Assembly: GCA_965216315.1 (NCBI GenBank)
Contig: CBDCFN010000016.1
Span: forward strand, 2,272,001 to 2,336,000
DNA from: a bacterium
Lineage (GTDB): Bacteria > UBA10199 > 2-02-FULL-50-16 > JAJFLM01
Length of the DNA stretch: 64,000 bases
Direction of reading: 5' to 3'
Both the position numbers and the translations under genes were made by a program. Below are positions 7,074 to 50,124 of the stretch, piece after piece. A model generated the notes under the pieces. The model saw nothing but the letters and a program-made list of their open reading frames with translations. It did no database searches and was not told where the DNA came from. How positions within the stretch are numbered: position 1 is the first letter of the stretch; each line of letters opens with the position of its first letter.

Positions 7074-7853
7074 CTATTCGGGCATTTCCTCGACCGACCC
7101 ATCCGTATTCATCATTGCCCCGTCTTTTGCGATACGCTCCATGAGTTCGTGTAGTGGAACGGCATGACTCCGACGGGATTCAAACTTTCGCTCTTCATGC
7201 TTTTCATCCGTCGCCGCACCTTCTTCCGCGTCGTCATCCTCCCGCATTTCCTTTGCTTGCATCGGCATCAATCCAGCCAGATGACCGTAACTGGATTTAT
7301 TTAAAGTTGTGAATGAAGTATCCGTCTCTGCTTCGGTATTCGGAAGCGCGACCCAACGATCGTCGTCGAGAGCCAGACCAAGCTGTCCCCAGCTTAGCGG
7401 ACGTTCGCTCGCCTCGACATGAAGCTGTTCACTCAAACCCTCTTCCGTCGTGAAAAGCAAAGGGATCTGCTCCTCGCTGCTGAGACTCAAGGAGAAATGA
7501 TAATACTGCCCGGTCTCAACCCAAAAACTAAAACGACACTCGAAATCGACCGAACCGATGACGACGGTTTGAGGACCCTGCTGCACCCAAATCTGGCGTC
7601 CGACGCAGTCGCCGTCGCCCGCGAATTCCGCTTCTGCCTGCCACTCGGACTGCGGCGGCACCATGCCGATGATCTGGCGATAGGCGGACGGTGGATTACC
7701 GGCCTCGGTCCCGCCTTGAAACTGGCTTAGCGGCGGCTGCGTGCCGCAGGCAAAGCCGCCCAGGGCCTGAATGAACAGGCCCACCACGATGACGATGCAT
7801 TTTCGTATGGTGTATTCTCCCGATAAGATATTTTGCTTAAGTGAGAACATCAC
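7074..7853 (-). CDS. Putative lipoprotein, GGTEAGNP-motif family; start uncertain, possibly ATA at 7808
   Basis: Hydrophobic stretch ending GFAC, GGTEAGNP, C-x22-C-x-F domain shared with four other lipoproteins. Confidence 0.7.
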   Translation of the reverse strand: MMFSLKQNILSGEYTIRKCIVIVVGLFIQALGGFACGTQPPLSQFQGGTEAGNPPSAYRQIIGMVPPQSEWQAEAEFAGDGDCVGRQIWVQQGPQTVVIGSVDFECRFSFWVETGQYYHFSLSLSSEEQIPLLFTTEEGLSEQLHVEASERPLSWGQLGLALDDDRWVALPNTEAETDTSFTTLNKSSYGHLAGLMPMQAKEMREDDDAEEGAATDEKHEERKFESRRSHAVPLHELMERIAKDGAMMNTDGSVEEMPE

Positions 7854-7858
7854 CTAAG

Positions 7859-7920
7859 TTATCGAAAGAATAAAGGAAATGTTGTATACAGCGGAAAATA
7901 TCTGTTGACTCAAGTCAACA
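7859..7920 (-). promoter_or_regulatory. Sigma-28-like promoter (CAAC-N15-TCGATAA) plus GTTGAC-N4-GTCAAC box
   Basis: ttatcga 7859-7865, gttg 7881-7884, tgttgactcaagtcaaca 7903-7920. Confidence 0.65.
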
Positions 7921-7929
7921 GCTGCGCCT

Positions 7930-8754
7930 TTAGCGCAGCTGTTCGTGCAGATCTTCCGGATCTTCGATCGGCTGCTGCGCGCCACCGATCTCATTCAATG
8001 ATTTGATGACCTTAATAACGCTGTCTCTTTTGATCATCATTTTATCATCACCCTGTTCTTCTTCCTGCTCCGTAATACCGTAAGTTCCGGTGAACGGATT
8101 AGTCACCTCTTCGGCGCCTTGATTCTCCTCGGTGCCGCCAAAGCCTTCTGCAGGACCGGCCTGTTCCGTCTCGTCTTCACCTTCGCCCTCAGGATAATAG
8201 GGACCGCCGGTCCCTTCACTGGACCCGCCCGCCCGGGCGGCATAACTATCGCCTTGCTGGTAGAAGGAGATCTTGCCAATATCGTGGGTCACTCCGCGGC
8301 CTTCGAAACGGACATGAGGCGTATCATCATCGCCAAAGCCAACTCGAACCCGGGTGCCGTCAGGCATTTCAATATCAAACATATACTTGTCGCCAGACCG
8401 CAATCCAGGGATCGTAAAATCACAACTCGGCGTTACAGACGCACTTGTCTCTAAATGAGTGTGCACGTTCGTGGCAATAACCTTAACGCCCGCGCAGGCG
8501 TTCGGTAAATTCGGATCAAAACCGGGAATCTCCTGCATACGAGGAACGTTACCGGTCACCGAAACGATGCCGGGGTTTTCGGCCTGCCCGGGATCTTGAT
8601 CAGTCACCGAGGGACCGTTCCTGGGGTTACCCGCTTCGGTACCGCCTCGAAGTCCGGGATTTCCTAAACCGCCACCACTACCCCCAGTATTGCAAGCAGT
8701 GACCGTTATCGCCACGACAGCCAAGGTTAAAACTAAATTAAATGCTTTCTTCAT
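7930..8754 (-). CDS. Lipoprotein, GGTEAGNP-motif family
   Basis: MKKAFNLVLTLAVVAITVTAC lipobox (ATG 8754); GGLGNP and GGTEAGNP; C-x23-C-x-F...DIG domain; directly downstream of a TIGR02147-like gene. Confidence 0.8.
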   Translation of the reverse strand: MKKAFNLVLTLAVVAITVTACNTGGSGGGLGNPGLRGGTEAGNPRNGPSVTDQDPGQAENPGIVSVTGNVPRMQEIPGFDPNLPNACAGVKVIATNVHTHLETSASVTPSCDFTIPGLRSGDKYMFDIEMPDGTRVRVGFGDDDTPHVRFEGRGVTHDIGKISFYQQGDSYAARAGGSSEGTGGPYYPEGEGEDETEQAGPAEGFGGTEENQGAEEVTNPFTGTYGITEQEEEQGDDKMMIKRDSVIKVIKSLNEIGGAQQPIEDPEDLHEQLR

Positions 8755-8779
8755 GATGTAACACCCTTTCGTACGCTTC

Positions 8780-9628
8780 TTACGCTCTTTCATGTTTTGT
8801 CACCGGCAGCATCTGGATACTGAGCAAGACAACATCATCTGGATTGTCATCGTCAGCAACCAACTGGAGGATTTCGCGTCGAAACTCCTGAATGCGTTTT
8901 TTGATCTGCGGGACTCTTTCTTTAATAATTCCTAAAGTCAGAGCACTGACATCCCGTTCTTTTTGTTCCACCTCGGGAAGCTGCCCTTTTAATAAATCAA
9001 ACAAACTCTGGTGATAATTTAAAAGCACGAGGGAATCGGCTTCGGCACCGCTCGTTACAAGCGGTGTCGCCTGTTTCCACTTATTGGTCACCGCATCACG
9101 CTCAATAAAATGAAGTCGCGCCAACAATTCGACGGACTTTTTTACTTGCGCGGGAGACACTTCCGGCTGCAATCTTTTAGCCAACCACTCGATTGAACCG
9201 TCAAAATCCTTAGAAATGATCAACTCGCGCACAACCGGATGATACCAGGTTGAAAAATACTCGTAACGATCCTGCGCAAGTGGCTCTAACTGACTGTAGC
9301 GTTGAGAACGAATCAACTTCTTATAGTAAGCGTTTTTTTCCGCGTGCGTTTTCGCCTGATTAAAGAAGACGAGATTACGAAAGTGCTCGCGCTCCGGACG
9401 CTCCAGTTTGATTCCTTTAATGAATTTCTTGAGGCTTTCCTCAGTCAGGTTACGTTCGCCATCCATGACGAGTTTAAAAATATTGGAGGATTTAAAGCCG
9501 GCTTGCCGGGAAAAGACCCGATATGAAAACCCGTACCGCTCTTTGGCCGATTCATACCAATCGCGCAAGAAGGCCCGGTAATCCATATAATCGAATACTG
9601 AGACGTTATTGTTGCCGTTGTTACCCAT
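8780..9628 (-). CDS. TIGR02147/DUF4423-like putative DNA-binding regulator, copy 1
   Basis: Family motifs F.Y.DYR.FL.DWY, SYR.FS..AGFKS.N...LV..G.RNL, F..LV.FNQA, YFS.WYH.V.REL, LL.YH, RD.SALTLG. Confidence 0.88.
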   Translation of the reverse strand: MGNNGNNNVSVFDYMDYRAFLRDWYESAKERYGFSYRVFSRQAGFKSSNIFKLVMDGERNLTEESLKKFIKGIKLERPEREHFRNLVFFNQAKTHAEKNAYYKKLIRSQRYSQLEPLAQDRYEYFSTWYHPVVRELIISKDFDGSIEWLAKRLQPEVSPAQVKKSVELLARLHFIERDAVTNKWKQATPLVTSGAEADSLVLLNYHQSLFDLLKGQLPEVEQKERDVSALTLGIIKERVPQIKKRIQEFRREILQLVADDDNPDDVVLLSIQMLPVTKHERA

Positions 9629-9676
9629 GTCACTTACCTATACGCTATTATACCCTGTATACTGCCTGTTCTCTAG

Positions 9677-9704
9677 TTATCGTTCAGCGTCCGGCTTGAG
9701 TTGC
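9677..9704 (-). promoter_or_regulatory. Sigma-28-like promoter (GCAAC-N16-ACGATAA) upstream of regulator copy 1
   Basis: ttatcgt 9677-9683; gttgc 9700-9704. Confidence 0.6.
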
Positions 9705-9825
9705 CTCATTTTGACGAAATTTATCAATTTTTTGTATGCAGCAATCCCTATCTAACTATCTGTTATTATTAATTTTTTAATTTCTATCTTATTTATGCCC
9801 TTTTTTTTGAGTCAACAGGCCCCCC

Positions 9826-9888
9826 TGTTGACCCAGGTCAACAGATAATCCTGACGAAACGCAACGAAGACTCGAACGAATCCGATAA
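9826..9888 (+). promoter_or_regulatory. GTTGAC-N4-GTCAAC box plus sigma-28-like promoter (GCAAC-N16-CCGATAA)
   Basis: tgttgacccaggtcaaca 9826-9843; caac 9862-9865; ccgataa 9882-9888. Confidence 0.7.
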
Positions 9889-9931
9889 GTCTCAACGAAA
9901 CGAACCGCAATTTCTGAGCATGGAGGCAACA

Positions 9932-10522
9932 ATGGGTGAACCAAGCACACTTCTTAATATCTATAATAGCACCAAAGACTATATTTGGAACTTAGCCGCT
10001 GCGCAGCCCGTGGAAACGGATAGCGATGTCGCTTCCGGCGCTGATGACACGGCGCAAACTCATGCGAATACGGATTTACTAGACAAGACCGTCACCCCCT
10101 GCAAAAAGGCAACTCCTTCGGTCGTTCGCCTTCATCAAGCCCCGATGCGCCCCGGCCAGCGGGACGATGGGGATACCGAATTCACCAATTTCATGAAACG
10201 ACCCGGTTTCGGGCACGACGAACGCGTCGTCAGAGAGCTTGGTTATGCGTTTGACAAGTCGAAACTACCGGACACGATTACAGTCCGCATGCAAATATCG
10301 TCCAATGGAAGTATTGCGGTCGCCGAACTCCCGGAAGACTACAAACCACCGAAGGGCATTTCACGGGAGGAAATGAACCACATCATTCATCGAGCGCTCG
10401 TGCCTTTTAGCGTGCCTAGCTATGCAGTGCCGGAAGCATCGCGAACGAATCCATGCGCGTGGATCACGCACACCATATCGCTGAATCCGACACCGGATCC
10501 GGCATCAGTACCTAACAGTTAA
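9932..10522 (+). CDS. Hypothetical protein, no signal peptide; weak resemblance to a TonB-C-terminal-like fold
   Basis: GGAGG RBS before ATG 9932; followed by a terminator; TITVRMQISSNGSI segment. Confidence 0.65.
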   Translation: MGEPSTLLNIYNSTKDYIWNLAAAQPVETDSDVASGADDTAQTHANTDLLDKTVTPCKKATPSVVRLHQAPMRPGQRDDGDTEFTNFMKRPGFGHDERVVRELGYAFDKSKLPDTITVRMQISSNGSIAVAELPEDYKPPKGISREEMNHIIHRALVPFSVPSYAVPEASRTNPCAWITHTISLNPTPDPASVPNS

Positions 10523-10597: not shown

Positions 10598-10675
10598 CGT
10601 TCACTCGTGTTGACTGACGTTAACAGATAAACTTTTTGCAACGCAACAGTGTGTCGGTAGGTACCGATAACTAAT

Positions 10676-10758
10676 ATACAACAAGTTATTCAACTTACAC
10701 ATACGCACCCATGACACTCCAAAAAGGTCATCCCTCTCCCCGGGGGGATGACCTTTTT
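10676..10758 (+). ncRNA. Candidate ~80-nt small RNA
   Basis: Lies between a promoter motif (10644-10670) and a terminator hairpin (10721-10758) with no complete + strand ORF. Confidence 0.5.
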
Positions 10759-10890
10759 ACTTTTAAAGGTGTTAACTTACGTCAACAGATAAAGCCTTCG
10801 TTAACGAATATTAAACAACATCGTTTGCGAATAACCGATAATACTACAGGTAGGCTAACTGATAACTCGTTTCAGAAAGGTTGGGATAAC

Positions 10891-11238
10891 ATGTCGTATC
10901 AAATTCATACCGTCCGTCCGGGAGACACGTTGGCAAGCATTGCGCGGCACTACGGCGTCACCATGCAGCAACTCCGGAAGCTGAATGTTCATCTCACGCA
11001 ATCGAGTGGCTCGATTCCTCGTACGAGTGCAGGAAGTAAGATTTACGTCGGTGACGAAGTCCGTATTAAAGAGCTCCTTGAGTGCGGCCGCAACGTCGGG
11101 CCTTTTCAGTTGGGTTGTCGTTATGCGTCGAGTGACACATTAAAACTGGAGTTTGGTATCAAGGGCGACGTAAGCACACAACCCCTTAATTCCTCAATCA
11201 TGGTTGGCGCCAGAATCACTTTTTCCGGGGGCAACTAA
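10891..11238 (+). CDS. LysM peptidoglycan-binding domain protein
   Basis: HTVRPGDTLASIARHYGVTMQQLRKLN...KIYVGDEVRI; ATG 10891 lies downstream of promoter 10816-10841. Confidence 0.85.
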   Translation: MSYQIHTVRPGDTLASIARHYGVTMQQLRKLNVHLTQSSGSIPRTSAGSKIYVGDEVRIKELLECGRNVGPFQLGCRYASSDTLKLEFGIKGDVSTQPLNSSIMVGARITFSGGN

Positions 11239-11247
11239 ATAGCTGAA

Positions 11248-12435
11248 CTAGGGTTGCGCCGTAAACGAAGTCGTTGCGGCCTTGGTCTTACCGCCCGTCC
11301 CGCAGTCGATTTCATCGACCTTGACCTCGTATTCGGTCCCGGCGGCAAAGGGGTCAACGCCGTGCTCGCACGCGATCTCATCCGCCCCCAGCTGATGGTT
11401 GGTGCAATCGACGTCGATCGCGAGTCCTTTGGGCTGAATAATCAGCGCGCTGGGAAAATCGATCAGGCCAAGATGATATTTGCAGCCCAAGCGAACAATC
11501 ACCTGTTCCGAGAGGCCTACGCCCGTCTGACCGTTGAAGGGATAAATTCTCAAGACCGGAACCATCCCCCCCAAATCTTCCTCACGACAAGGTGAGCCGG
11601 GATCATTGTCATCGATAAAACCATTGAGGTCACAATCCCGCTCCATTTGATCAAGTACGCCGTCGTTATCATCGTCCGTGTCGATCGCATCCGAGTCCCC
11701 ATCCTCGTCGCGGTCCGTATAGATCTCCGGATTGTGTTCCGGAATCGCGTCAAGACCCTCGATCTGCACCCGACCTAAGTCAACGGGTTTCTCGGCCGGG
11801 AGCCCGACGTAAAACTCATTTTGGCGGATAAAGGCGCGCTGCTTACTGAGATGTTCCATCTTCACGACCAGGCGCGCGACGAGGTCACCGGTCTTTTTTC
11901 GGAACTCCAGCATATAAGCGCGCTTGGTCGGCACAGCGAGCTTAAAAGAGCAATCCGATTCAATTCTCGTAGTGAGCTCTTGTCGTGCAGAGTTGATCGC
12001 GGTCACGGTCGCGGCCGGACAGACCTTGACTACCGCAATTTTAGTCGCCTGCTCGGCCCATTCCGTCCGGATGTTTACCAGACTCATCTGCATGAGCGGC
12101 CTGATATCCTTATACGGCAATTCGCGCACCGGGCTCTCGATCAGCTGCCGTTCCTCTTCCACGGGCTGCAGCTGACCGATGATCAGGCGTAGCGGAGCCG
12201 GATCCTGATCGTAAGGTGTTCCCGGCCGTGGCCCTGGTCCCGGATCAGTCGGCGTCGCTTCCGGATTCCCGAAATCCGTTCCCCCGAACTCTGGGTTCCC
12301 GAAATCCGTTCCGCTGATCGTTTGCTCGGTATCGACAATGTCCGGTGGTGCGGTATCCGCTCCCTGCGGCTGGACGCACGCGGCAATAAAAAAGACGAGC
12401 GCAATAGTACTGAGCAACCGGCTCCAGCAGGTCAT
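11248..12435 (-). CDS. Lipoprotein with two GTDFGNP motifs, Asp-rich Ca-binding (TSP3-like) repeats and C-terminal Ig-like domain
   Basis: IAAC lipobox; SGTDFGNP and GGTDFGNP; C-x22-C-x-F..DLG; DRDEDGDSDAIDTDDDNDGVLD; ATGA overlap with regulator copy 2. Confidence 0.85.
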   Translation of the reverse strand: MTCWSRLLSTIALVFFIAACVQPQGADTAPPDIVDTEQTISGTDFGNPEFGGTDFGNPEATPTDPGPGPRPGTPYDQDPAPLRLIIGQLQPVEEERQLIESPVRELPYKDIRPLMQMSLVNIRTEWAEQATKIAVVKVCPAATVTAINSARQELTTRIESDCSFKLAVPTKRAYMLEFRKKTGDLVARLVVKMEHLSKQRAFIRQNEFYVGLPAEKPVDLGRVQIEGLDAIPEHNPEIYTDRDEDGDSDAIDTDDDNDGVLDQMERDCDLNGFIDDNDPGSPCREEDLGGMVPVLRIYPFNGQTGVGLSEQVIVRLGCKYHLGLIDFPSALIIQPKGLAIDVDCTNHQLGADEIACEHGVDPFAAGTEYEVKVDEIDCGTGGKTKAATTSFTAQP

Positions 12436-13357: not shown

Positions 13358-15238
13358 CTAACCCTCACCATTCGGGTCTTGGATGACCATGCGTGCCGCC
13401 GCCGTCCAATAGTCGACGTCAATCTCCGCATCGACGAGGAGGCGTGCCCCGGCCAAGGTCGTAATCTCCGGATGTTCGTGGAAGCGAATCGGGATCAACG
13501 GGATAAAGTAAGGTGGGTAACGCTCCAATACATAATCAAGCAGCTCCATTTTATCATCGTCGCTAAGCCACTCGAGTCGCGCTAACCCCAAAAACCGAAA
13601 GGCCTGTCGCAAGTTGAGCGGCTTCGGATAGAGCGACACATGGGCCGTTTGATAGATATTCCATAATTCGTGGAGGTGGCTCTCGATCTGACTGCGCTGT
13701 TTCTGCGGCGAGGTCACGCCGCCACCTACGAAGATGATGTGCTGTCCCGGATAACGCAAAAACCGTTTGGCAAATTCCGCAAATTTCTCGACATACTTAC
13801 CCGAGATATAAACAGACTCATCAAAAATAAACACTGTCGGTTGCACGATATCATCGATCTCGCGGATCAAGCCGATGGCCCGATCACCTCCCCCCATCGC
13901 CTGGGCATCAAGCGAAACGACTCGGTGCCCCCTTTCTGATAAGACCCGTTCCAAATTCCAGATGAGAACCTCACTTTTTCCGGAGCCCGAAAGGCCGGTC
14001 GAAGAGACGAGCTGGACACCATCCTCAATCGCGCTAACGACCTGATCGACTTCGGAAGCACGATAGTCACGAAGCGACTTATCCGAAGGATCTCGATCGA
14101 TCGACCGCAGCAGCCGACTATCCTGAGTACGAAAGCCCACCACATGATAAGGGGATCGCGGTTGAGTCCGCTGCGATAAGTCAGGAATCGGCGGGGTCTG
14201 ACGCGGGCGCGGAAATAGGTGGGGTCGATAAATAATCAAGGCATTGCGCACCGTCTCCGGCAAATTGGTAAAGGGCATCCCGAGCACACCCCGTACACGA
14301 CGGAGAATGCGGCCGCCGCGTCCCGCAATAACCGATTCACGAAAACGGCTGATAGTCTCATCATCCTTTAAATCCAATTGCATCGTGTAGCTGGAGCGAT
14401 CGAGCAAGAAGGCCAGCCCCGGACGGCGCGCCACGTCCACGACCTGATCAACCGTAAACTGATAACCATGACGCTCAATAATCTCGGACACAACTCGCAG
14501 CCAGCCGAGTTTAATCCGGGGGAGCACAATAAACCCAGCGAGTTCGCGTGGACTCCTCAGTTCATTGTATTTATCTTGAGCAAAGGCCTCGCCGTAATCG
14601 CCCGCAAATTCCTTCAGTTTATTGCCGATGGCATTGCGAGTTCCCTGATCGATCGTAACCCCATCAAAGAAGCGGTAGGCATAACGGCCGACCTCACGCG
14701 CTTCGATCTGGAAGTCACTCACCATCCCACTCTTGCGCGCAAAATGAAGTAGATTTTGATGGATCTGCAGAGCCAGTCGGGACTTGGATCCCGTAATTTC
14801 TATGGATGTATCACTCCTTCGCGTCAGCGATCCGTCCGCATTCCGTTGCCAGACGTACGTACAACTTCCATTGATACTGTCACCATTCCCTTTAAACTCG
14901 GCGTGCGTCTCAAAAGTATTTTCGTTGTGTCTCGCCACACGCAGGCAATCAAGCTTCAAGGAAATGTTCATTCCTTCAAAGGCATTAATCAGATCCTGGA
15001 TGGTGACCCGCTCCCCAAAGAATTGCGCAAACGCTTGATGCAAAGCGGGATGCCGCGACGCATCCTCAATCGCATAGTCGACATCGTCGATCGATACGGA
15101 GCTGAGCCGGTGCGTTTGAATAGGAAACGGCCCCGAAGGAGGATTTAAAATATCGAAAGAATCCCCGGAGGCCAGAACAGTCGTCATCAAGCCTATTGAG
15201 GCTAAACCGTTCGTATAGGAGGACACCACAGGCAGCAT
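13358..15238 (-). CDS. Hypothetical multidomain protein: possible GNAT-like N-terminal region plus P-loop NTPase
   Basis: Walker A GLSGSGKS, Walker B VFIFDE; IEAREVGRYAYRFFDG segment; start either GTG 15244 or ATG 15238. Confidence 0.7.
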   Translation of the reverse strand: MLPVVSSYTNGLASIGLMTTVLASGDSFDILNPPSGPFPIQTHRLSSVSIDDVDYAIEDASRHPALHQAFAQFFGERVTIQDLINAFEGMNISLKLDCLRVARHNENTFETHAEFKGNGDSINGSCTYVWQRNADGSLTRRSDTSIEITGSKSRLALQIHQNLLHFARKSGMVSDFQIEAREVGRYAYRFFDGVTIDQGTRNAIGNKLKEFAGDYGEAFAQDKYNELRSPRELAGFIVLPRIKLGWLRVVSEIIERHGYQFTVDQVVDVARRPGLAFLLDRSSYTMQLDLKDDETISRFRESVIAGRGGRILRRVRGVLGMPFTNLPETVRNALIIYRPHLFPRPRQTPPIPDLSQRTQPRSPYHVVGFRTQDSRLLRSIDRDPSDKSLRDYRASEVDQVVSAIEDGVQLVSSTGLSGSGKSEVLIWNLERVLSERGHRVVSLDAQAMGGGDRAIGLIREIDDIVQPTVFIFDESVYISGKYVEKFAEFAKRFLRYPGQHIIFVGGGVTSPQKQRSQIESHLHELWNIYQTAHVSLYPKPLNLRQAFRFLGLARLEWLSDDDKMELLDYVLERYPPYFIPLIPIRFHEHPEITTLAGARLLVDAEIDVDYWTAAARMVIQDPNGEG

Positions 15239-15245
15239 ACTCACT

Positions 15246-16121: not shown

Positions 16122-16443
16122 AGGGGTTTCAATGATCTTATAACAACCCCCTCATCAAGTACACAGAAATTGGCATGATGCTTTTAAAGAAAAGAGGCTA
16201 ATAATACCTCGCTTTTTAGCAGCGAGTTTTCTGTACACGCTCAATGCACAGAGCCTTGTTGCAGAGGACACCGGCAAGGCGGCACAGCAGGCAATGACGG
16301 GGCGACGACCGGAGAGACGCCGCCCCGCCCAGGGTTCAGCTAGCGGTATTGACCGATTCCAAGGAAACGGACGCACCCGACAACCACCAGCAGAGCCAGA
16401 GTGCCTACAGAGAGAAGAACTGATGACTCGCCCGAACAGTTAG

Positions 16444-16515
16444 TTATCGGATATATGAGGTCCGCGGATGCGGATTATCAGCAGAATATTCTATAATCAG
16501 TGTACTTTAGTACAC
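16444..16515 (-). promoter_or_regulatory. Sigma-28-like promoter (GCATC-N16-CCGATAA) plus GTGTAC-N4-GTACAC box
   Basis: ttatcgg 16444-16450; gatg 16467-16470; gtgtactttagtacac 16500-16515. Confidence 0.6.
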
Positions 16516-16565: not shown

Positions 16566-17711
16566 CTATAAAGCCGTCTTAAAAGTCCAACTCGTCTGCG
16601 GAATACTTTCCCCGCCGTCACAGTCGGTCTCCAGCAGCGTCGCCGTGTACGTCATGTTGTGCACAAAGGGAAGCGCGTGCGTACACTCAATAACCGTATT
16701 GCCAACAAAGAGAACCGACACGCACGCAATCGTGGCAGCCACTTCATCCTCGAGTTTGATCTTGCCCGAATCAAACTGGCCGACATCAACGGGGCAACTG
16801 ACCTTGACCCGTATCTTTTGCAACTCACCTATATCCGTTTCGCCACTAAAAGGAGACGCTGCGAGCACTCGCGGTCCGGAAGAGGATCCTCCTGCGGAAC
16901 ACGCGGAATCTTCGTCGCCATCATCGGGAAAGCCATCGAGGTCACAGTCCGGCTCTTCCACATCAGGAATTCCATCATTATCGTCGTCAGGATCGTCTTT
17001 GTCATTGAGGCCATCTCCGTCGCGGTCACTCCACGCGCGCGGATCATTGGCCGCCGTTGCAATCTTACCTGTGCGCGCAATAGCCCCCAAATCGAGCGGG
17101 GTGTCCGAAGCCGGGATGTTGAAAGTATGAAGCGGAACGCCTCCGACTACTGAGACGACTAAACGCGATTGGATCGAGCCTGCCGACCAAAAACTCATAT
17201 GATAAAGTTGATTGGAGGGGACCTCAATACGGAAAGAACAATCGTCTTGAATATCGGACTCATGAACCTCTCCATCGGAAGCGGTTAACTTGACGTGGTC
17301 GACCCCGCAAATCAGCTTCGGCGGGGTCGCGAAGGAACCGGGACCAGGCGCGGGCGGTTCCGGCACGGTACTTCCTCCCGTCGTAAACCCCGGGGCCAAA
17401 CCTACCTGGTCGCCCGCGAATCCAGGATTGTCTCCCGGTGCCGGCTCCTCGTTCCCTGAAGGGGCCTTTTCTGCAATGAGTTTCAACTGACCCGTCACGA
17501 GAGCGATGGGATTGCCGAATTCGGAACCCCCTTGAGGATTACCAAATTCCGAACCTCCCTGTTCCTGCGGATTACCGAATTCGGAAGCGCCGGTCTTTTC
17601 GACCTCAGCCCCAGTGGGGACGTTATCGGGAGAATCAAGACCGCCTCCCGGTACACAGGATGTCAGTAGGAATAACAGGGCCGTAATCGAAACAATTGAA
17701 CGCGCGTGCAT
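16566..17711 (-). CDS. Lipoprotein with three G(A/G)SEFGNP motifs, Asp-rich repeats and Ig-like domain; paralog of 11248..12435
   Basis: LTSC lipobox; GASEFGNP, GGSEFGNP, GGSEFGNP; C-x22-C-x-F..DLG; DRDGDGLNDKDDPDDDNDGIPD. Confidence 0.85.
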   Translation of the reverse strand: MHARSIVSITALLFLLTSCVPGGGLDSPDNVPTGAEVEKTGASEFGNPQEQGGSEFGNPQGGSEFGNPIALVTGQLKLIAEKAPSGNEEPAPGDNPGFAGDQVGLAPGFTTGGSTVPEPPAPGPGSFATPPKLICGVDHVKLTASDGEVHESDIQDDCSFRIEVPSNQLYHMSFWSAGSIQSRLVVSVVGGVPLHTFNIPASDTPLDLGAIARTGKIATAANDPRAWSDRDGDGLNDKDDPDDDNDGIPDVEEPDCDLDGFPDDGDEDSACSAGGSSSGPRVLAASPFSGETDIGELQKIRVKVSCPVDVGQFDSGKIKLEDEVAATIACVSVLFVGNTVIECTHALPFVHNMTYTATLLETDCDGGESIPQTSWTFKTAL

Positions 17712-17760: not shown

Positions 17761-19239
17761 TTATTGTCTCAACAGCGCACGGCGCCCAAACAACACGCCT
17801 AATGCTGCCAAGGCCATCACGAAGAGGCCGAGTGTATTTGCCGCGTGAGGCGTCGCGTTCAGGCTACAACCACCCGATGTCGCGAGTGATTCACTTTCTT
17901 CACCCGTTCCATCACCGACGATAACTTCTTCATTTTCCGCCGGATTCTCTTCCGCATCCTCTCCCTTATCCGCGTCTATGTTTATAAGTTCGCCTTCACA
18001 TTGATCATCACAACCGTCGCCATTTTCTTCATTCCCGTCGTCGCAGTCCTCTCCCTCATCCACAATACCATTGCCACAGAGACCTTTTTCGAAGGCCCCG
18101 ACATCCGAACTGACCCCAAGAGGCCTCGGAAAACCGCGCTGGTCTTCAGCCAGCTTGACAATGATGGCGGCATCAATAGCGAGGCTGCCGGCTCCAAGCG
18201 CATGTGTGCGGGTGTCTCCGCCGTTAAAAGCCAAGGCTTGCAACTTAAGATCGGCACTGTCGACTCCCGATTGATCCGTCGTTTCCGTAAGGTTACAGGT
18301 TCCGTCGACATCAATGTTGCCACCACCCGATGTAATCGTCCCGAGACCACCGGACGTATCGCAATTCGCGTCAACGCCGCCGGATCCGTCTACCTGTGCC
18401 AACAAACTATTATACAAATTCACTTCGCCATCACCGGCAACGAGATGAGCCGCTAGCAGGTCAGCACGATTATGATAGAAAGTGACATGCCAGAGATCCA
18501 CATCGTCCGCGAGACTCACCAGCCCGCCACCGGTCGGCGCCGTATTGTTACTGATCGTGACATTCACCAACTTGATGTTGCTAGAGCCCGTTCCAACGGC
18601 AACACCGCCACCAAAATCGGCAGCGCTATTGTCGCTGACCAAACAGCGCTCCATATCAAGCGTTCCGGTTCCTATCGCCAGACCGCCGCCAGCGTCGGCT
18701 TCATTGCCGATAAGCTCGACATCACGCAAAATAATATCACCGGATCCATCCGAATAGATTCCGGCACCGGGTTCCGTGGGGCTCGATCCACTCTGAATCG
18801 AGAGTCGCTCAAAAGTTACGTTCGCATTATTTAAAACGTGAAACACTCGACTGTGTTGACCACCACTGATAATCGGCAGAGGCAATTTCTTAAGCGGGAT
18901 AGCACCCGAACTCAAACTCGGGTCCCCTTGGATGATGACATCATCCGTGATATCAAAATCGCGCAGGCCATTCGCATCATCATCGACAAGCATCGTCTCA
19001 TCGATTCCATAAATGCCGTTGGCAATGATAATCGTATCTTCGCCGGGATTGCTATTCGCTAGATTAATCGCCGCACGCAAGGTGCATGACGTTCCGCCAC
19101 CGAGCATGAAGAAACAGATACCACCATCTTCCGTTCGATCCACGGTATAAGTCTCCGCGTGGACTTGAGCCGCCGCCAACATCGCGACAACCACCGCGCT
19201 AATAATTGAGAATTTTTTAATCGTTTCCAGTATACCCAT
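17761..19239 (-). CDS. CSLREA/choice-of-anchor Q surface protein with MYXO-CTERM-like sorting signal
   Basis: Signal peptide, CTLRAA, one Cys-rich repeat, C-terminal SGGCSL-linker-TM helix-RR. Confidence 0.88.
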   Translation of the reverse strand: MGILETIKKFSIISAVVVAMLAAAQVHAETYTVDRTEDGGICFFMLGGGTSCTLRAAINLANSNPGEDTIIIANGIYGIDETMLVDDDANGLRDFDITDDVIIQGDPSLSSGAIPLKKLPLPIISGGQHSRVFHVLNNANVTFERLSIQSGSSPTEPGAGIYSDGSGDIILRDVELIGNEADAGGGLAIGTGTLDMERCLVSDNSAADFGGGVAVGTGSSNIKLVNVTISNNTAPTGGGLVSLADDVDLWHVTFYHNRADLLAAHLVAGDGEVNLYNSLLAQVDGSGGVDANCDTSGGLGTITSGGGNIDVDGTCNLTETTDQSGVDSADLKLQALAFNGGDTRTHALGAGSLAIDAAIIVKLAEDQRGFPRPLGVSSDVGAFEKGLCGNGIVDEGEDCDDGNEENGDGCDDQCEGELINIDADKGEDAEENPAENEEVIVGDGTGEESESLATSGGCSLNATPHAANTLGLFVMALAALGVLFGRRALLRQ

Positions 19240-19277: not shown

Positions 19278-19350
19278 TTATCGACTCCGGTGGGGTCTAA
19301 GTTGAGCGTCAATGAGGAATATTTACCTAAAACAGTGTACATGAGTACAC
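19278..19350 (-). promoter_or_regulatory. Sigma-28-like promoter (CAAC-N16-TCGATAA) plus GTGTAC-N4-GTACAC box
   Basis: ttatcga 19278-19284; gttg 19301-19304; gtgtacatgagtacac 19335-19350. Confidence 0.7.
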
Positions 19351-20079: not shown

Positions 20080-20197
20080 TTATCGGGAGATGCCATTGAA
20101 ACGTTTCGTCGGCGCCTAAATTAACGTGTACCATGGTCCACTAGAATACCTACCACTCGACAGATACAACACAACGCACACACAATCGAACCGATAA
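20080..20197. promoter_or_regulatory. Divergent sigma-28-like promoters sharing one GTGTAC-N4-GTCCAC box
   Basis: Minus: ttatcgg 20080-20086 and gttt 20103-20106; box 20126-20141; plus: caac 20172-20175 and ccgataa 20191-20197. Confidence 0.65.
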
Positions 20198-27396: not shown

Positions 27397-27459
27397 GTGG
27401 ACCTAGGTACACTGAGAATTATTTCAGGTACACAACAACGCCTCCACTCAAACCGATAA
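27397..27459 (+). promoter_or_regulatory. GTGGAC-N4-GTACAC box plus sigma-28-like promoter (CAAC-N16-CCGATAA)
   Basis: Box 27397-27412; caac 27433-27436; ccgataa 27453-27459. Confidence 0.65.
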
Positions 27460-27525: not shown

Positions 27526-27939
27526 ATGAAACCGCGTATCGTATCTAAAGAACAGTTTAATAATATGACCAGCAAAGAGGTCTGCGGTGACGCCTGGACC
27601 GGACCTCAAGTCGAAGACAAAGGCAAAATAGGCACGCTTGAGCTGACGGACGGTCAGGTTGTTCATCCTATTTGTGGCATGCAAACCTCACCTGCCGGAC
27701 CCGACGGCGAGCTGATCAGCATTGACCGTACTTGGTACGATGGAAACAGCGGACATTTATCTAATGTTCGTTGGTACTTTAGCGCTAACCCTACTTACAA
27801 TTCCTTTTCGAATGAATCGCCGCTGACGCGTTTAAAAGATGTCCTTCAAGCCAATCCGAACATCACTAATGTGTCTTCGAACCTGTGGAAATACATTACA
27901 CAGCAGGAGATCATCTGGAACAACATGTCCGAATGTTAA
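27526..27939 (+). CDS. Hypothetical protein
   Basis: AAGGAG RBS; upstream promoter motif. Confidence 0.7.
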   Translation: MKPRIVSKEQFNNMTSKEVCGDAWTGPQVEDKGKIGTLELTDGQVVHPICGMQTSPAGPDGELISIDRTWYDGNSGHLSNVRWYFSANPTYNSFSNESPLTRLKDVLQANPNITNVSSNLWKYITQQEIIWNNMSEC

Positions 27940-35784: not shown

Positions 35785-36759
35785 TTAGGACCCTGACATC
35801 ACGACACCGCGAGGCGGGGTAAAGGTCAAGTGCCCGCGTCCCGCCTGGGTAAAGGCCATCGAGCGCAAGATTTCATGAGGGGTCGAGGTTGCGTCATCCA
35901 CGGTCGCCAAGAGAACGTAGCCACAACCGGCGTGATACGCCGACCCCTTTTTATAAGGGACGGGATGGTATTCGGTGCCCTCAATGACGTACGGATCCCC
36001 TCCCTCGCCGGCTTGGGGAATGCCTGCCTGACCCACGGGGGCTATCATGACATTGTCGAAGGTCCGCGTATAGGTCACACCCTCCGCCGTGCGTCCCGTC
36101 ACTCCCAGCTGTCCTGCCACCGGGTTAAAAGGGCCCTGGAGAGGAAGACGAATCGAATCACTGGAAAGATGGGACGTCCCGCCAAAACGAATGTCGCTGG
36201 CCAGATAAACCTGAGCCCCGTCGCTACCTTCCACCGTCTTACCGGCGATCGAGACGAGGAGCCCCTCGAGCTCCGTCGATTGACTCAAGGCCGTCTGAAT
36301 ATCACGGACCAGTGCCTGCTCCTGGCTGTCACTAAGATCCAATCCCGAGGCGAAGACCTGCACGCGGTCCAGAGACGCCATGGTCAGCCCCTCGGTATTC
36401 GCAACCGTCGCATCGAGATAAATCATCAAGGATCCGGTATCGAGACGGGTGTAGCGATCGCCCAAGGCTCCGGTCAGGGTCTCTCCCACGATTCGATTGA
36501 CCTCCGGATTGGAGAGGCGATGGCCGGGGTCCGACATGGGCGGCGTCGACGCTGAAGAGGCCGGGAGGGTCCGTGCCATCACGGATGTACCGCCGTTGGC
36601 ACCTGAAGACCCCGCCATCGCTTGAAACGAACGGCTTACCTCGGCCTCCGTCATAGTTGGCTCGGCCGCTACGGCGGTATCACTGGATACAAATTGTGCT
36701 GTATTGATATCGGCCATGGTGCGAACCATGGCGCTTCCTTGAATAATTGTTTCAGACAT
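35785..36759 (-). CDS. Hypothetical protein
   Basis: GGAGG RBS before ATG 36759; upstream promoter/box cassette. Confidence 0.7.
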   Translation of the reverse strand: MSETIIQGSAMVRTMADINTAQFVSSDTAVAAEPTMTEAEVSRSFQAMAGSSGANGGTSVMARTLPASSASTPPMSDPGHRLSNPEVNRIVGETLTGALGDRYTRLDTGSLMIYLDATVANTEGLTMASLDRVQVFASGLDLSDSQEQALVRDIQTALSQSTELEGLLVSIAGKTVEGSDGAQVYLASDIRFGGTSHLSSDSIRLPLQGPFNPVAGQLGVTGRTAEGVTYTRTFDNVMIAPVGQAGIPQAGEGGDPYVIEGTEYHPVPYKKGSAYHAGCGYVLLATVDDATSTPHEILRSMAFTQAGRGHLTFTPPRGVVMSGS

Positions 36760-36845
36760 TACACACCTCCATGCCTTATTTATTTTCGTCACAATACTCA
36801 GGGCAGTTGTGAATGGCGCCGAGATTCAGTGTACTCTCAGTACAC
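36760..36845 (-). promoter_or_regulatory. Cassette: GTGTAC-N5-GTACAC box, CAAC-N16-ACGAAAA promoter, GGAGGTGTGT RBS
   Basis: Box 36829-36845; gttg 36806-36809; ttttcgt 36783-36789; same layout at 48469-48554. Confidence 0.7.
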
Positions 36846-47049: not shown

Positions 47050-47111
47050 GGGAGAGAACCTACTTCAATAGGACGCGGATGACAAGCCTTACGAAAAAGG
47101 CGTCATAGGTG

Positions 47112-47233: not shown

Positions 47234-47238
47234 TACAA

Positions 47239-47276
47239 ATAAAAATAAGGACCCCAGTTAGGGTCCTTATTTTTAT
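47239..47276. terminator. Bidirectional terminator-like hairpin downstream of tRNA-Ser(GCT)
   Basis: ataaaaataaggaccc-cagtta-gggtccttatttttat. Confidence 0.75.
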
Positions 47277-47277
47277 G

Positions 47278-47364
47278 CGGAGAGGGTGGGATTCGAACCC
47301 ACGGTGCAGTTTCCCGCACACTTCCTTAGCAGGGAAGCGCCTTCAGCCACTCGGCCACCTCTCC
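47278..47364 (-). tRNA. tRNA-Ser(GCT)
   Basis: GGAGAGGTGGCCGAGTGGCTGAAGGCG-CTTCC-CTGCTAA-GGAAG, long variable arm, GGTTCGAATCC. Confidence 0.95.
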
Positions 47365-47611
47365 GATCCGAAAACGAAAGCGCAGCTTCCGCTTTCTTTA
47401 GTTAAGGGGAAGATACTGCTCTCCCCCTTAACTATCCCTCATCTGTCATAATCGCCTCAATTTCAAGATATTTTCTAAGGAGGGGGTACCAGCGAGCGCA
47501 GCGAGTGTCCGTAGGGGGAACCTGGGTTCCCCCTCGGAAATATTCGAAAGTGACAATTGGATTCAATCTATGAGCTTCGTTTTAGCGAAGCCCTCTAGGT
47601 CACTACAGATG

Positions 47612-47696
47612 CGGAGGGGGTGGGATTCGAACCCACGGTACCTTGCGGCACGGCGGTTTTCAAGACCGCTGCCTTCAACCACTCGGCCACCCCTCC
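47612..47696 (-). tRNA. tRNA-Ser(TGA)
   Basis: GGAGGGGTGGCCGAGTGGTTGAAGGCA-GCGGT-CTTGAAA-ACCGC, long variable arm, GGTTCGAATCC. Confidence 0.95.
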
Positions 47697-47925
47697 AATT
47701 CGCCAGCGAAAGCATGAGCTTTCACTGGCCTTAGTTAAGGGGGGAGATAAGGGCCTCCCCCCCTAACAATTCCCCTCTGTCTTGTTCAGACGGGGGTACG
47801 GAGAAGTGTCACATCCTAGCGACGTTGAAGTATGTTGGCAAGTCAGGTGTTCATTTACACACCCAAAAAGCCCCTCGCGGGGCTCTTGGGGTGTGTATTG
47901 GGTGATGTAAAGAAAAACTTTCAAC

Positions 47926-48468
47926 TTATTTTGCGTCAGCCACGACTCCAGTATCCAAATTAAGGTAGTGACGGTGTCTTCCCGTCGCATCTGTATAGAC
48001 AAGCTTAACTTCATGGTCGTTACGCCCTGCCGTAATACGGACATTCCGCTTAATGTAATTGAAGCCATTTAGGTCGCGATCAAATTTTCCAATAGTTGAA
48101 CCAATCAATCGATACTGACCATCCGACATCAACGCAGACGTTTCTTCCCAGCCAGAACCGTCACCCCAATACCGTGTATTATCATCTCTACGGGTTAGGG
48201 ATACGAAATGACGGTCCAAAGTTTTTTGGGCTCTTTTGCTGGTCTTGTAGCGTGTGTCATGATCGAGTCGATTTTTACATAGATCATCCAGTGCCCTCCG
48301 AGGATCGATTGAGCGCTCGACTCCATCGATTGTTTGGCAAAACGCATCCCCTTCATCGACAACCCCATTCTCATTGAGATCACGAACTCTCATGCCAGCG
48401 GGATTATTAGAATTGTACTCGTCGACAGATACCTGTTTAAATAACTTCGGATTCTTTATTTCCGCCAT
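47926..48468 (-). CDS. Hypothetical protein with an EF-hand-like DLNENGVVDEGD motif
   Basis: GGAGG RBS; promoter/box cassette upstream; terminator-like hairpin near 47856-47896. Confidence 0.7.
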   Translation of the reverse strand: MAEIKNPKLFKQVSVDEYNSNNPAGMRVRDLNENGVVDEGDAFCQTIDGVERSIDPRRALDDLCKNRLDHDTRYKTSKRAQKTLDRHFVSLTRRDDNTRYWGDGSGWEETSALMSDGQYRLIGSTIGKFDRDLNGFNYIKRNVRITAGRNDHEVKLVYTDATGRHRHYLNLDTGVVADAK

Positions 48469-48554
48469 CACACACCTCCATGCTTTTCAAATTTTCGTCA
48501 GTATTGACACGAGAGTTGCTACAAGAGAGGTATTTCCGTGTACTCTAAGTACAC
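48469..48554 (-). promoter_or_regulatory. Cassette: GTGTAC-N5-GTACAC box, CAAC-N16-ACGAAAA promoter, GGAGGTGTGT RBS
   Basis: Box 48538-48554; gttg 48515-48518; ttttcgt 48492-48498; divergent from regulator copy 5. Confidence 0.7.
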
Positions 48555-48631
48555 GCTCATAATGCCATATAGCCCTTTTTAAACACTAAATAAGTAGGAT
48601 ATTGTCCTTAATATAGACGGAAATTTCGGGT

Positions 48632-49486
48632 ATGATAGTACACGTGACCCCAGTCAAGCTCTTCGAATACCTCGATTACCGCGAATACCTCAAAGCTTGG
48701 TTTGAGGCAGCCAAACAGACACGGGCGGGGATGTCGTACCGGCTCTTTTCCAAGCGGGCCGGGCTCAAATCGACTAACTTCATCATGCTCGTCATGCAGG
48801 GCAAACGGAACTTGAGTGACAAAGCGGCCAAAATGGTCGCGAAAGGGCTCAAGCTGTCCAAGGAAGAGTCGGAGTTCTTCCGCTATCTCGTCCTCTTTAA
48901 CCAGGCCGAGGCCCATAACGATAAGGCCCTGTATTATGAGCAGATGCTGCAATTTCGACAGTACCGCAAGCACCGGCCGATTAGCCAGGAAGAGTATGCA
49001 TACTGCTCTCAATGGTATCATGCGGCCATTCGCGAGCTGATCCTTGATCCTGATTTTGATGGCAAGCCCACCTGGATCGCGGAACGGCTTGGCAATCGAA
49101 TTAGCCGCGAGGAGGCTGCAGAATCGCTGAAGTTACTGCAAAAACTGAACTTTGTGCAGCGCACCCCATCAGGTCGCTGGCAGCAACAGGATGTGACGCT
49201 GACGGCGGGATCTCGGGTTGTATCTCTCGAGTTATTCAATTATCATTTAAGTATGATGGCGCTGTCCCCCCAGTTACTTGAAAGCCTGCCCGGGCAGCGT
49301 CGCGATATGAGCGCGGTCACGATGGGTATCGCAGCAGGACGTTTGCCTGAGCTCAAAAAGAAACTCCAGAAATTCCGTAAGAGTCTCCTCAAATTTTCCG
49401 CTGAAGCGGCCGACCCCGAGGAAGTGGTGCAGGTCAATCTCTACATGTTCCCCTTAACCGTCCCGAAAGGGTGCAAAGACTCATGA
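48632..49486 (+). CDS. TIGR02147/DUF4423-like regulator, copy 5
   Basis: Same motif set as copies 1-3. Confidence 0.88.
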   Translation: MIVHVTPVKLFEYLDYREYLKAWFEAAKQTRAGMSYRLFSKRAGLKSTNFIMLVMQGKRNLSDKAAKMVAKGLKLSKEESEFFRYLVLFNQAEAHNDKALYYEQMLQFRQYRKHRPISQEEYAYCSQWYHAAIRELILDPDFDGKPTWIAERLGNRISREEAAESLKLLQKLNFVQRTPSGRWQQQDVTLTAGSRVVSLELFNYHLSMMALSPQLLESLPGQRRDMSAVTMGIAAGRLPELKKKLQKFRKSLLKFSAEAADPEEVVQVNLYMFPLTVPKGCKDS

Positions 49487-50124
49487 AATTCATATTACTA
49501 GGAACTCTGCTCTTCTTATTAAGTGCCTGCGCACCGGGGATGTCTCCCCTTAGCAGCAGTCCTACTTCAATGGATGCGGAAACGGCAGGTGGTGAGACTG
49601 CAGCTCCCGACGACGTCGACGCCGGGAGCCCCCAAGTTGGGGGGACTGAATTTGAAAATCCCGAAGCCGGCGGCGCGCCTCCCGATGTACCGGGAGAAGA
49701 TATCCCCGTCAGCGACGAAGATGATGACCCTAAAGGAAACCCTGCGGACACCGTACAAAACAATACGACACGTATTGTCGTAGGCCACTTACAAACCGAA
49801 GGGGGAGATAACGATGGCGCGGCCAACCCTCACGTCACGGTTCTCGGCTATGTGAACTCGAGTTGTCCCGCGGACGATCTTATCATCGTTGACCCGAACG
49901 CGAAGGAACAATCGGTCAAGATTGGTCCGAAATGTCTCTTTCAATTCAGTGCCCTAACAGGTCTTCATTACCAGGTACGCTTCCTAAAAGACGGCGAAAT
50001 GGTCGCTAAATTTCCCACGCCCCTACTGGTCAAACAGGGGAACCCCCCCCTCGACCTGGGGAAAATTCGATTTCAGGATGGGCTGGCAATCCGGACCGCT
50101 ATAGAAAAGAAACTCTCTCCCTGA
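49483..50124 (+). CDS. Lipoprotein, GGTEFENP-motif family
   Basis: MKFILLGTLLFLLSAC; GGTEFENP; C-x22-C-x-F..DLG; ATGA overlap with regulator copy 5. Confidence 0.85.
   Translation: MKFILLGTLLFLLSACAPGMSPLSSSPTSMDAETAGGETAAPDDVDAGSPQVGGTEFENPEAGGAPPDVPGEDIPVSDEDDDPKGNPADTVQNNTTRIVVGHLQTEGGDNDGAANPHVTVLGYVNSSCPADDLIIVDPNAKEQSVKIGPKCLFQFSALTGLHYQVRFLKDGEMVAKFPTPLLVKQGNPPLDLGKIRFQDGLAIRTAIEKKLSP

Follow-up and report, generated by a model that had tools for sequence, protein, structure and literature searches.

What do the TIGR02147/DUF4423 proteins of bacteria control, and through which DNA sites? The question is raised by a window of 64,000 nucleotides (nt) (the whole stretch analysed, coordinates 2272001–2336000 of contig C16) in a bacterial genome of 2.96 Mb, assembled in 16 contigs with a completeness rating of 98.31 %. 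The window contains five genes of this family, lipoprotein genes whose products share a short GGxExGNP-like tag, and palindromic boxes, GTNNAC-N4/5-GTNNAC, that lie at fixed distances from promoters resembling those of sigma-28 (FliA). The family is large and without assigned function, with up to 18 copies per genome, and occurs in Fibrobacterota, Myxococcota, Bdellovibrio-like bacteria and candidate phyla; in the literature searched, we found no published function for TIGR02147 ("Fsuc_second") or DUF4423, only a table entry for Bd3700 in a Bdellovibrio proteome. The answer that we favour, and hold to be rather probable, is that TIGR02147 proteins are dimeric transcription factors controlling their own cassette, formed by the regulator gene and its lipoprotein gene, and that one subgroup also activates FliA-like promoters, through a binding of the boxes that we infer.

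The regulator and tagged lipoprotein genes of the window are the following, with the scores of the regulators taken from an NCBIfam search in which the curated cut-off for TIGR02147 is 50 bits (aa, amino acids):

8780–9628, minus strand: TIGR02147 copy 1, 282 aa, recognition helix KSSNIFKLVMDG, 278.2 bits
12432–13292, minus strand: TIGR02147 copy 2, 286 aa, recognition helix KSSNYIMLVIQG, 260.3 bits
15273–16121, minus strand: TIGR02147 copy 3, 282 aa, recognition helix KSWNFIMMVLQG, 278.3 bits
23210–23833, minus strand: TIGR02147 copy 4, shortened, 124.7 bits
48632–49486, plus strand: TIGR02147 copy 5, 284 aa, recognition helix KSTNFIMLVMQG, 256.4 bits
7930–8793, minus strand: tagged lipoprotein after copy 1 (GLGNP and GGTEAGNP; from the translation, strict tag match)
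7074–7853, minus strand: second tagged lipoprotein (GGTEAGNP; from the translation, strict tag match), with its own box and promoter upstream
11248–12435, minus strand: tagged lipoprotein after copy 2 (GTDFGNP twice; from the translation, tag match), ATGA overlap
16566–17711, minus strand: tagged lipoprotein upstream of copy 3 (GSEFGNP three times, tag match; Big_5-like end, Pfam)
49471–50124, plus strand: tagged lipoprotein after copy 5 (GGTEFENP, tag match); its ATG at 49483 overlaps the regulator stop as ATGA

Copies 1, 2, 3 and 5 cover positions 3–271 of the TIGR02147 profile and match Pfam DUF4423 in their C-terminal two thirds (122–138 bits, cut-off 30). Copy 4 matches TIGR02147 as two stretches and DUF4423 with 27.6 bits, under the cut-off; in an alignment of all paralogs it misses about 100 central residues, and no lipoprotein follows it. 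The partners of copies 1, 2 and 5 have a signal peptide, a lipobox cysteine and the tag GGTEAGNP, GTDFGNP or GGTEFENP, and none of the tagged lipoproteins of the window matched a Pfam or NCBIfam family. The recognition helices fall into two groups, SSNI[FL]K in copies 1 and 4 and S[SWT]N[YF]IM in copies 2, 3 and 5. A sequence-only reading of this DNA had proposed five paralogous regulators, three of them with a lipoprotein directly after (two by ATGA overlap) and a fourth with one upstream, as well as two helix groups beside two groups of boxes, with GTTGAC around copy 1 and GTGTAC beside copies 3 and 5; the TIGR02147 and DUF4423 profile searches bear out the regulators, and the remaining observations agree with the features found here. 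At the place after copy 3 where a lipoprotein would be expected, between copies 3 and 2, there is a 628-aa protein (13358–15244, minus strand) with a Walker-A-like GLSGSGKS sequence, which showed no match to any Pfam or NCBIfam family.

The pairing of regulator and lipoprotein extends to the whole genome, which contains 14 TIGR02147 genes (15 matches, two being the halves of copy 4). A tagged lipoprotein lies directly after 12 of the 14, the exceptions being copy 3, with the 628-aa protein next, and the shortened copy 4. At eight of these 12 junctions the two genes overlap as ATGA and at two others by 8 and 20 nt, whereas copy 1 (TAA stop) and C16:105078 are separated from their partners by gaps of 25 and 17 nt. 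The strict pattern G[TS][ED]x[GE]NP is present in 11 open reading frames genome-wide, ten of them no more than 1 kb from a paralog. The sole strictly tagged lipoprotein without a TIGR02147 neighbour (C16:1825329–1826009, GTETGNP) has its own GCAAC-N16-CCGATAA promoter. We then compared 80 relative loci, taken from contigs of one genome per species of candidate-phylum "Deltaproteobacteria", Myxococcota/Polyangiales, Fibrobacterota, Bdellovibrio-like bacteria and others. Among the 78 loci with enough downstream sequence for a tag search, 48 had a GNP tag after a hydrophobic or lipobox stretch just downstream of the regulator stop, against 0 of 78 in the reverse-strand control; 24 of 30 same-class relatives carry TIGR02147, with between 1 and 18 matches per genome. 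The cassette is a genome-wide, cross-phylum unit, and the adjacency first noticed in the window is kept elsewhere.

Beside these cassettes, the window contains the following boxes, given with their distance to the -10 element of the nearby promoter:

7904–7919, minus strand: GTTGAC-N4-GTCAAC, 38 nt from TCGATAA (7859–7865)
9827–9842, plus strand: GTTGAC-N4-GTCAAC followed by AGATAA, 39 nt from CCGATAA (9882–9888)
10609–10624, plus strand: GTTGAC-N4-GTTAAC, 39 nt from CCGATAA (10664–10670), with an overlapping box at 10599
10771–10786, plus strand: GTTAAC-N4-GTCAAC, 48 nt from CCGATAA (10835–10841), before a LysM gene (to 11238)
16500–16515, minus strand: GTGTAC-N4-GTACAC, 49 nt from CCGATAA (16444–16450), upstream of copy 3
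19335–19350, minus strand: GTGTAC-N4-GTACAC, 50 nt from TCGATAA (19278–19284), before the beta-helix protein gene 17761–19239
20126–20141, both directions: GTGTAC-N4-GTCCAC, 49 nt from CCGATAA 20191–20197 (plus) and 39 nt from CCGATAA 20080–20086 (minus)
27397–27412, plus strand: GTGGAC-N4-GTACAC, 40 nt from CCGATAA (27453–27459), before 27526–27939
36829–36845, minus strand: GTGTAC-N5-GTACAC, 39 nt from ACGAAAA (36783–36789), with CAAC at N16; minus-strand ATG at 36772
48538–48554, minus strand: GTGTAC-N5-GTACAC, 39 nt from ACGAAAA (48492–48498); also 77 nt upstream of the copy 5 ATG on the plus strand

GTNNAC-N4-GTNNAC occurs nine times in the window for 0.50 expected, a number reached by none of 100 shuffles, and CCGATAA 22 times for 9.95 expected, likewise reached by none of 100; the two GTNNAC-N5-GTNNAC boxes (0.41 expected, reached in 6 of 100 shuffles) are weak evidence taken alone. 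All N4 boxes except that at 10599 lie 38–40 or 48–50 nt from YCGATAA with no more than one half-site mismatch, and both N5 boxes lie 39 nt from the ACGAAAA variant; the 10599 box, overlapping that at 10609, has a spacing of 49 nt but two half-site mismatches. With eight of the nine N4 boxes and both N5 boxes in phase, the ten palindromic boxes at fixed promoter distances, as previously described for the window, are confirmed. The box at 9827–9842 is predicted to drive 9920–10522, divergent from copy 1. A reading of GTNNAC as a restriction-site-like sequence is ruled out by the fixed pairing and phasing, and the genes beside the N5 boxes (35785–36792 and 47926–48471) were rejected as further TIGR02147 paralogs (E 1.7). 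The segment 10540–10850 is a tandem duplication of a module comprising a terminator-like hairpin, a box and a promoter, with the boxes at 10599/10609 and 10771; therefore, the LysM gene probably starts at an ATG near 10891 and not at 10711.

The phasing was examined genome-wide by scoring every GTNNAC-N4-GTNNAC situated 20–89 nt upstream of any YCGATAW, without requiring symmetry. Of 30 such pairs, 26 were at 38, 39, 40, 48, 49 or 50 nt, and the other four at 20, 54, 64 and 72 nt, so that the boxes behave as sites of a factor phased to an alternative-sigma-type promoter, as the sequence-only reading had supposed. The two spacing classes differ by one helical turn; given that transcription from sigma-28 promoters starts 7–8 nt after the -10 element, box centres would be near -61.5 and -71.5, resembling activator sites. 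The inner two half-site bases of the 26 in-phase boxes show 0, 1 and 2 mismatches in 7, 17 and 2 cases, for about 1.6, 9.8 and 14.6 expected under independence by our own arithmetic. Nearly all of the mismatches are at half-site base 4, and therefore base 3 defines three classes, GTT (the majority), GTG and GTC. The promoter-side half-site of most GTT-class boxes is adjoined by AGATAA, or by AGATAT or AGAAAC (for instance at 9843–9848, 10625–10630 and 10787–10792), and no such word follows in GTG-class boxes. All three perfect GTGTAC-N5-GTACAC boxes of the genome lie at exactly 39 nt from (A/C)CGAAAA, itself preceded by CAAC at 16 nt. For the two in the window, the start codon is only 10 nt beyond the ACGAAAA element, which points either to transcripts almost without a leader or to another mode of action of this element.

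The in-phase pairs also cluster near the paralogs, in agreement with the earlier observation in the window: 14 of the 26 are at most 4 kb from one, an area that amounts to 3.6 % of the genome (binomial p 4e-14). In-phase GTG-class boxes are confined to 16.4–27.5 kb of the window, around copies 3 and 4, copy 3 having an M-type helix. Genes behind in-phase promoters mostly have no Pfam family: of 20 proteins searched, 15 were products of such genes, and 13 of these 15 matched no family, the exceptions being an FHA protein and a helicase that is joined to a sigma region 4. Such promoters also precede the genes of the LysM and beta-helix proteins, as well as the cassettes. The helicase (C16:91474–94539, outside the window) is a 1021-aa superfamily 2 protein (ResIII, DEAD, Helicase_C) whose sigma-70 region 4 is nearly the same as the C-terminus of the RpoD of the genome, and a GTTCAC-N4-GTGAAC box lies 48 nt from its CCGATAA promoter.

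The promoters themselves form a class of their own. CAAC-N15-17-YCGATAA occurs 112 times in the genome, against two for the reversed-pattern control, and 78 of these 112 fall in the 6.4 % of the genome outside a crude gene set; it looks like a major promoter class, with window examples at 9882, 10664, 20191 and 27453. At all in-phase sites the -10 element is (C/T)CGATAA, in agreement with the sigma-28 (FliA) element GCCGATAA. The -35 element is (G)CAAC at N16, neither TAAA, as in Escherichia coli FliA promoters, nor TTAAG. The genome encodes RpoD, an RpoH, one extracytoplasmic function (ECF) sigma factor and a 299-aa sigma factor whose best family is FliA/WhiG (133 bits, cut-off 189.6), and no flagellin domain was found in this genome, at the completeness given above. 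The CAAC-N16-CCGATAA promoters are probably read by this single FliA/WhiG-like sigma factor. The nearest described case is Bdellovibrio bacteriovorus: TTAAG-N16-CCGATA is there assigned to 92 of 140 promoters of the attack phase, and a global role that goes beyond flagella has been proposed for FliA (PMC3627812). The -10 CCGATA, the 16-nt spacer and a large regulon that extends past flagella to surface and uncharacterised proteins are shared with the system studied here (PMC3627812). The two differ in that here the -35 element is CAAC, no flagellin was found and the sigma factor scores under the FliA/WhiG cut-off; phased upstream boxes are absent from the accessible part of the Bdellovibrio description (PMC3627812).

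An operator at the cassettes themselves became apparent upstream of the regulator genes. A perfect 6-N4-6 palindrome is present within 200 nt upstream in 31 of 94 loci, for 6.1 on average and 12 at most in shuffled sequences, and other gap lengths score below N4. When palindrome position was measured from the conserved DYR codon in 93 loci of several phyla, excluding pure A+T half-sites, 18 of the 93 loci had the palindrome centre between -120 and -101, with 2–4 loci in each of the other 20-nt bins and no bin above 6 in 200 shuffles. In other phyla, too, palindromes of box-like geometry are found at a constant distance ahead of TIGR02147 genes. Their sequences vary: the orthologous loci L010, L015, L016 and L020 share GTATAC half-sites despite four different spacers, others have GTGTTC/GAACAC (L025 and L026), GTTTAC/GTAAAC (L024) or GCATAC/GTATGC (C16:900337), and Fibrobacterota and Myxococcota loci have unrelated palindromes at the same place. 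Lysine at position 7 of the recognition helix (NFFK, NFLK) pairs with GTAT, GAAT or GTTT half-sites and methionine (NF[ILMF]M) with GTGT, in L025, L026 and copy 5, and L014 and L018 have GTGTAC words upstream; as the loci are related to each other, this is no more than a suggestive trend.

In related loci, private palindromes are in phase with CAAC-N16-YCGATAA in L012 (GTGTCC, 39 nt), L023 (GTATTC, 49 nt) and L028 (GTATCA, 38 nt), and that of L023 is identical with the palindrome upstream of its regulator gene. The composite of a box and YCGATA at 38–50 nt occurs 28 times in this genome, 13 times in a sister genus (G001), 4 and 3 times in two further relatives (G003 and G023) and 0–1 times elsewhere, as in the reversed control. 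Six relatives lacking the family had 0, 1, 0, 0, 0 and 1 composite sites, for 0–1 in the reversed control; family-carrying relatives also mostly have 0–1, so this comparison does not discriminate. Several composite sites of the sister genus are on paralog-bearing contigs, and its contigs syntenic with 6.8–9.6 kb and 15.6–20 kb of the window preserve this layout. Ahead of the copy 1 ortholog, the box, the CTGACGAA word, the CACAAC -35 and the CCGATAA -10 elements are kept, and the spacer and leader diverge. At the copy 3 ortholog, the box is again 49 nt from CCGATAA, as read from the sequences; the leaders align poorly in a global alignment, as the window has about 280 extra bases. The copy 3 leader (16122–16443) is about 320 nt long between CCGATAA and the start codon, for about 45 nt in the ortholog, and an Rfam search of the whole window at the gathering threshold returned three tRNAs only and nothing in this leader.

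Structural models are consistent with a dimeric DNA-binding protein. The AlphaFold2 (AF2) model of copy 1 has a mean pLDDT (predicted local distance difference test) of 89.5. Its residues 14–99 align with the XRE/HigA-type domain 3pxp (Z 8.3, root-mean-square deviation, rmsd, 2.9, 80 residues aligned), HigA 3trb (Z 7.1, rmsd 3.2, 76 aligned) and DdrO 6jq1 (Z 6.8, rmsd 2.5, 74 aligned), and residues 115–192 with the ArsR/HxlR/MarR-type winged helix 7r22 (Z 8.4, rmsd 3.2, 69 aligned); these Z values are middling, for helical domains in particular. A Foldseek search of the whole copy 1 model against the PDB gave no match at E 0.001 or better, the best being 4g6q (E 0.033), and no Pfam HTH_3 or related model matched the window regulators at E 0.01 or better, the weak matches being to the cyanase N-terminal domain (E 0.006–0.007). 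The homodimer model of copy 1 scored 0.77, with 0.00 for the best control; 20 of 30 proteins solved as pairs attained this mark, as did 1 of 23 solved as single chains. Our runs, made with our own alignment, agree in at least 95 % of contacts with a partner pLDDT of at least 80. The modelled interface comprises residues 199–280 and parts of 128–154, an arrangement in which the N-terminal domains would remain available for two half-sites. These predictions support a homodimer.

The mechanism that we propose on these grounds is as follows. TIGR02147/DUF4423 proteins would be cytoplasmic dimers with an N-terminal XRE-like helix-turn-helix (HTH), a central winged helix and a C-terminal dimerisation part, and the dimer would read a palindrome of 16–17 bp formed by two 6-bp half-sites with centres one helical turn apart. 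The translation of each regulator would be coupled to that of a lipoprotein with the G(G)(T/S)(E/D/Q)xGNP tag on its flexible N-terminal tether, and a palindrome about 70–90 nt before the start codon in most cassettes would serve to control this two-gene unit. In this genome and its sister genus, one paralog subgroup would have gained a trans regulon besides its own cassette, through GTTNAC, GTGKAC and GTCCAC palindromes whose centres precede the -10 element of CAAC-N16-CCGATAA promoters of lineage-specific genes by about 47 or 57 nt, a spacing that would correspond to class I activation via the alpha subunit of RNA polymerase. The sequences and models show the gene pairs, the tag, the boxes with their phasing, clustering and conservation, and the predicted fold and dimer; binding, the pairing of paralogs with boxes, the activating effect and the identity of the sigma factor are in this scheme inferred.

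Several observations weigh against it. Only a third of the loci have a perfect palindrome, and most family-carrying relatives have only 0–1 composite GTNNAC sites. All 14 near-paralog pairs lie in two neighbourhoods, so that the clustering statistic overstates their independence, and the other 12 of the 26 in-phase pairs are more than 16 kb from any paralog. The helix core of copy 1, SSNIFKLVMD, is identical in the C16:900337 paralog (with a flanking T instead of K), whose operator is GCATAC, and there is a GTATAC-like repeat near the start of copy 1; these two facts make the GTT-class reader among the paralogs uncertain. The model has two domains of DNA-binding type, and either might read the box. 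The stretch occurs in four sequencing runs, all of one study, and none of them is recorded as RNA. Finally, the box-bearing promoters mostly have good -35 and -10 elements, and activator dependence is thus not evident from their sequence.

The 12 distant pairs are also what one might expect if the phased boxes were the sites of another factor, such as the FNR/CRP-like protein C16:937791–938504, with the TIGR02147 genes belonging to its regulon. In their geometry, TTGAC-N4-GTCAA sequences resemble FNR/FixK boxes, the putative centres near -61.5 and -71.5 match the classical CRP class I positions, and the genome does encode one HTH_Crp_2 protein (72 bits), with N-terminal cysteines and an E-x-x-I-R recognition helix, all of which speak for such a factor. 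However, FNR-type proteins read the G of TTGA most strictly, and this base is degenerate here, where GTTGAC, GTTAAC, GTTTAC and GTTCAC all occur. At least three symmetric half-site classes (GTT, GTG and GTC, with N4 and N5) need several readers, for which there are one clear CRP/FNR protein and 14 TIGR02147 proteins. An FNR-type reader would moreover leave aside the like-shaped palindromes that TIGR02147 genes of distant phyla have at a constant upstream position, as well as the L023 palindrome that doubles as an in-phase site, and no box was seen by eye in the 300 nt upstream of the FNR-like gene. We consider this explanation unlikely.

Improbable to a like degree is that TIGR02147 proteins bind palindromes only as repressors or roadblocks, autorepressing in the manner of Cro/CI or C proteins, with the phased sites serving looping or anti-activation. 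Most XRE-type proteins act as repressors, the core elements of the FliA-like promoters with boxes are good, and in many cassettes the palindrome lies directly before a -10-like hexamer, a position that suits repression; in copy 5, CATAAT begins 3–4 nt after the box, and the same occurs at C16:900337 and in L010–L026. Nevertheless, two spacing classes one helical turn apart and well upstream of the -35 element (24–26 cases) are the usual signature of a face-of-helix contact with polymerase, and most sites have no second box at looping distance.

The dimeric activator that we favour leaves the role of the lipoprotein to be considered. Tag variants in relatives include GTETGNP, GSEAGNP, GIAVGNP and ITEVGNP, the Fibrobacterota partners have ETTNG-like stretches instead, and two Bdellovibrio-like partners have GTGVGN(G/S). 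The tag lies 2–58 residues after the first cysteine in this genome and directly after it in Myxococcota-type loci (C-A-GTETGNP). Its codons vary freely at synonymous sites, and therefore the peptide itself is under selection; a DNA-level role for the tag-coding stretch is ruled out by the same variation. Within this one genome, different cassettes share the same tag (GGSEIGNP twice, GGTEAGNP twice, GTETGNP three times), and these tags recur across phyla. The model of one lipoprotein, the partner of C16:97715, shows a signal helix, a low-confidence tether with the tag and a confident beta-sandwich (residues 43–136) of a generic transthyretin/CarboxypepD_reg/CBM20-like type (Z no higher than 7.0; Foldseek 4.6e-4 to 4v4c_B), and the fold matches of this sandwich offered no functional lead.

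A quite unlikely but far-reaching option is that the regulator is coupled to the tag and not to the fold of the partner, an unexported or unprocessed tagged precursor holding it inactive or active. If so, each cassette would report one envelope export or processing route into the FliA-like regulon, with a logic resembling the control of sigma-28 by FlgM export, in 14 parallel circuits here and from Fibrobacterota to Myxococcota and Bdellovibrio-like bacteria. Very unlikely is a scheme in which every regulator would sense the lipoprotein of its own cassette, or a GGxExGNP peptide cut from it, like Gram-positive peptide-sensing HTH regulators. In its favour, the tag and not the fold is constant in the partner (in 48 of 78 loci, 0 on the reverse strand), selection acts on the peptide and translational coupling is the rule. 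Against it, tags common to several cassettes can convey nothing specific to one of them, the regulator lacks a signal peptide whereas its partner is exported, so that the two are in different compartments, and the model combines a winged helix with a strand-swapped dimer, with no repeat-type (tetratricopeptide repeat-like) peptide-binding domain among the best 50 fold matches listed. The cognate lipoprotein or lipoprotein-derived signal that the sequence-only reading had assigned to each regulator is thus not supported, as identical tags recur across cassettes and phyla and the partners are proteins of 200–400 aa in which the tag is modelled as a flexible tether.

Several known systems resemble the dimeric factors proposed here. 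Autoregulating XRE/Cro-CI factors, including the C proteins of restriction-modification systems (C.Esp1396I is among the fold matches), share with the proposed scheme a small helical HTH, a dimer with a palindrome of half-sites one helical turn apart, and an operator upstream of their own gene and co-transcribed cargo. Unlike them, TIGR02147 proteins are predicted to contain a winged helix in addition and to dimerise through a strand-swapped C-terminal part (DUF4423), give no HTH_3 match at the threshold above and have a cargo that is always exported and tagged, in up to 18 paralogous cassettes per genome. Class I CRP/FNR sites share the 16-bp palindrome, the two spacing classes one turn apart upstream of the -35 element and the possibility that one box serves two divergent promoters (20126), and differ in that here the likely reader is not CRP/FNR, the promoter is of FliA and not sigma-70 type, and there are several half-site classes. 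In Bacteroidota, ECF sigma/anti-sigma pairs or hybrid two-component regulators stand beside SusC/D pairs, so that many paralogous local regulators lie next to their own outer-membrane or lipoprotein cargo, as here; those loci involve other regulator families, whereas the TIGR02147 cassette has no transmembrane sensor and its cargo shares an N-terminal tag, not a fold. The lipoprotein export signal of Bacteroidota is a short acidic motif directly after the lipidated cysteine; the tag has one acidic residue, is confined to cassette partners, and follows the cysteine directly in Myxococcota-type loci but at 2–58 residues in this genome.

The window provides this family with a candidate operator and a rule to find it, a 6-N4/5-6 palindrome about 110 nt before the DYR codon, together with a candidate trans regulon of exact spacing rules and a conserved N-terminal tag on the exported partners. 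New here are the phased, putatively trans-acting boxes on a FliA-like promoter class, which serves more than 100 promoters in a bacterium without flagella. Standard assays of binding and of reporter activity in a heterologous host could address these predictions, an advantage for uncultured lineages.

The remainder of the window is ordinary chromosome, with genes for PriA, def, fmt, rpe, glnA, serS and a class A penicillin-binding protein. At 3–6950 and 17761–19239 there are large secreted proteins with right-handed beta-helix, DUF4215, cysteine-rich repeat and choice-of-anchor Q domains.

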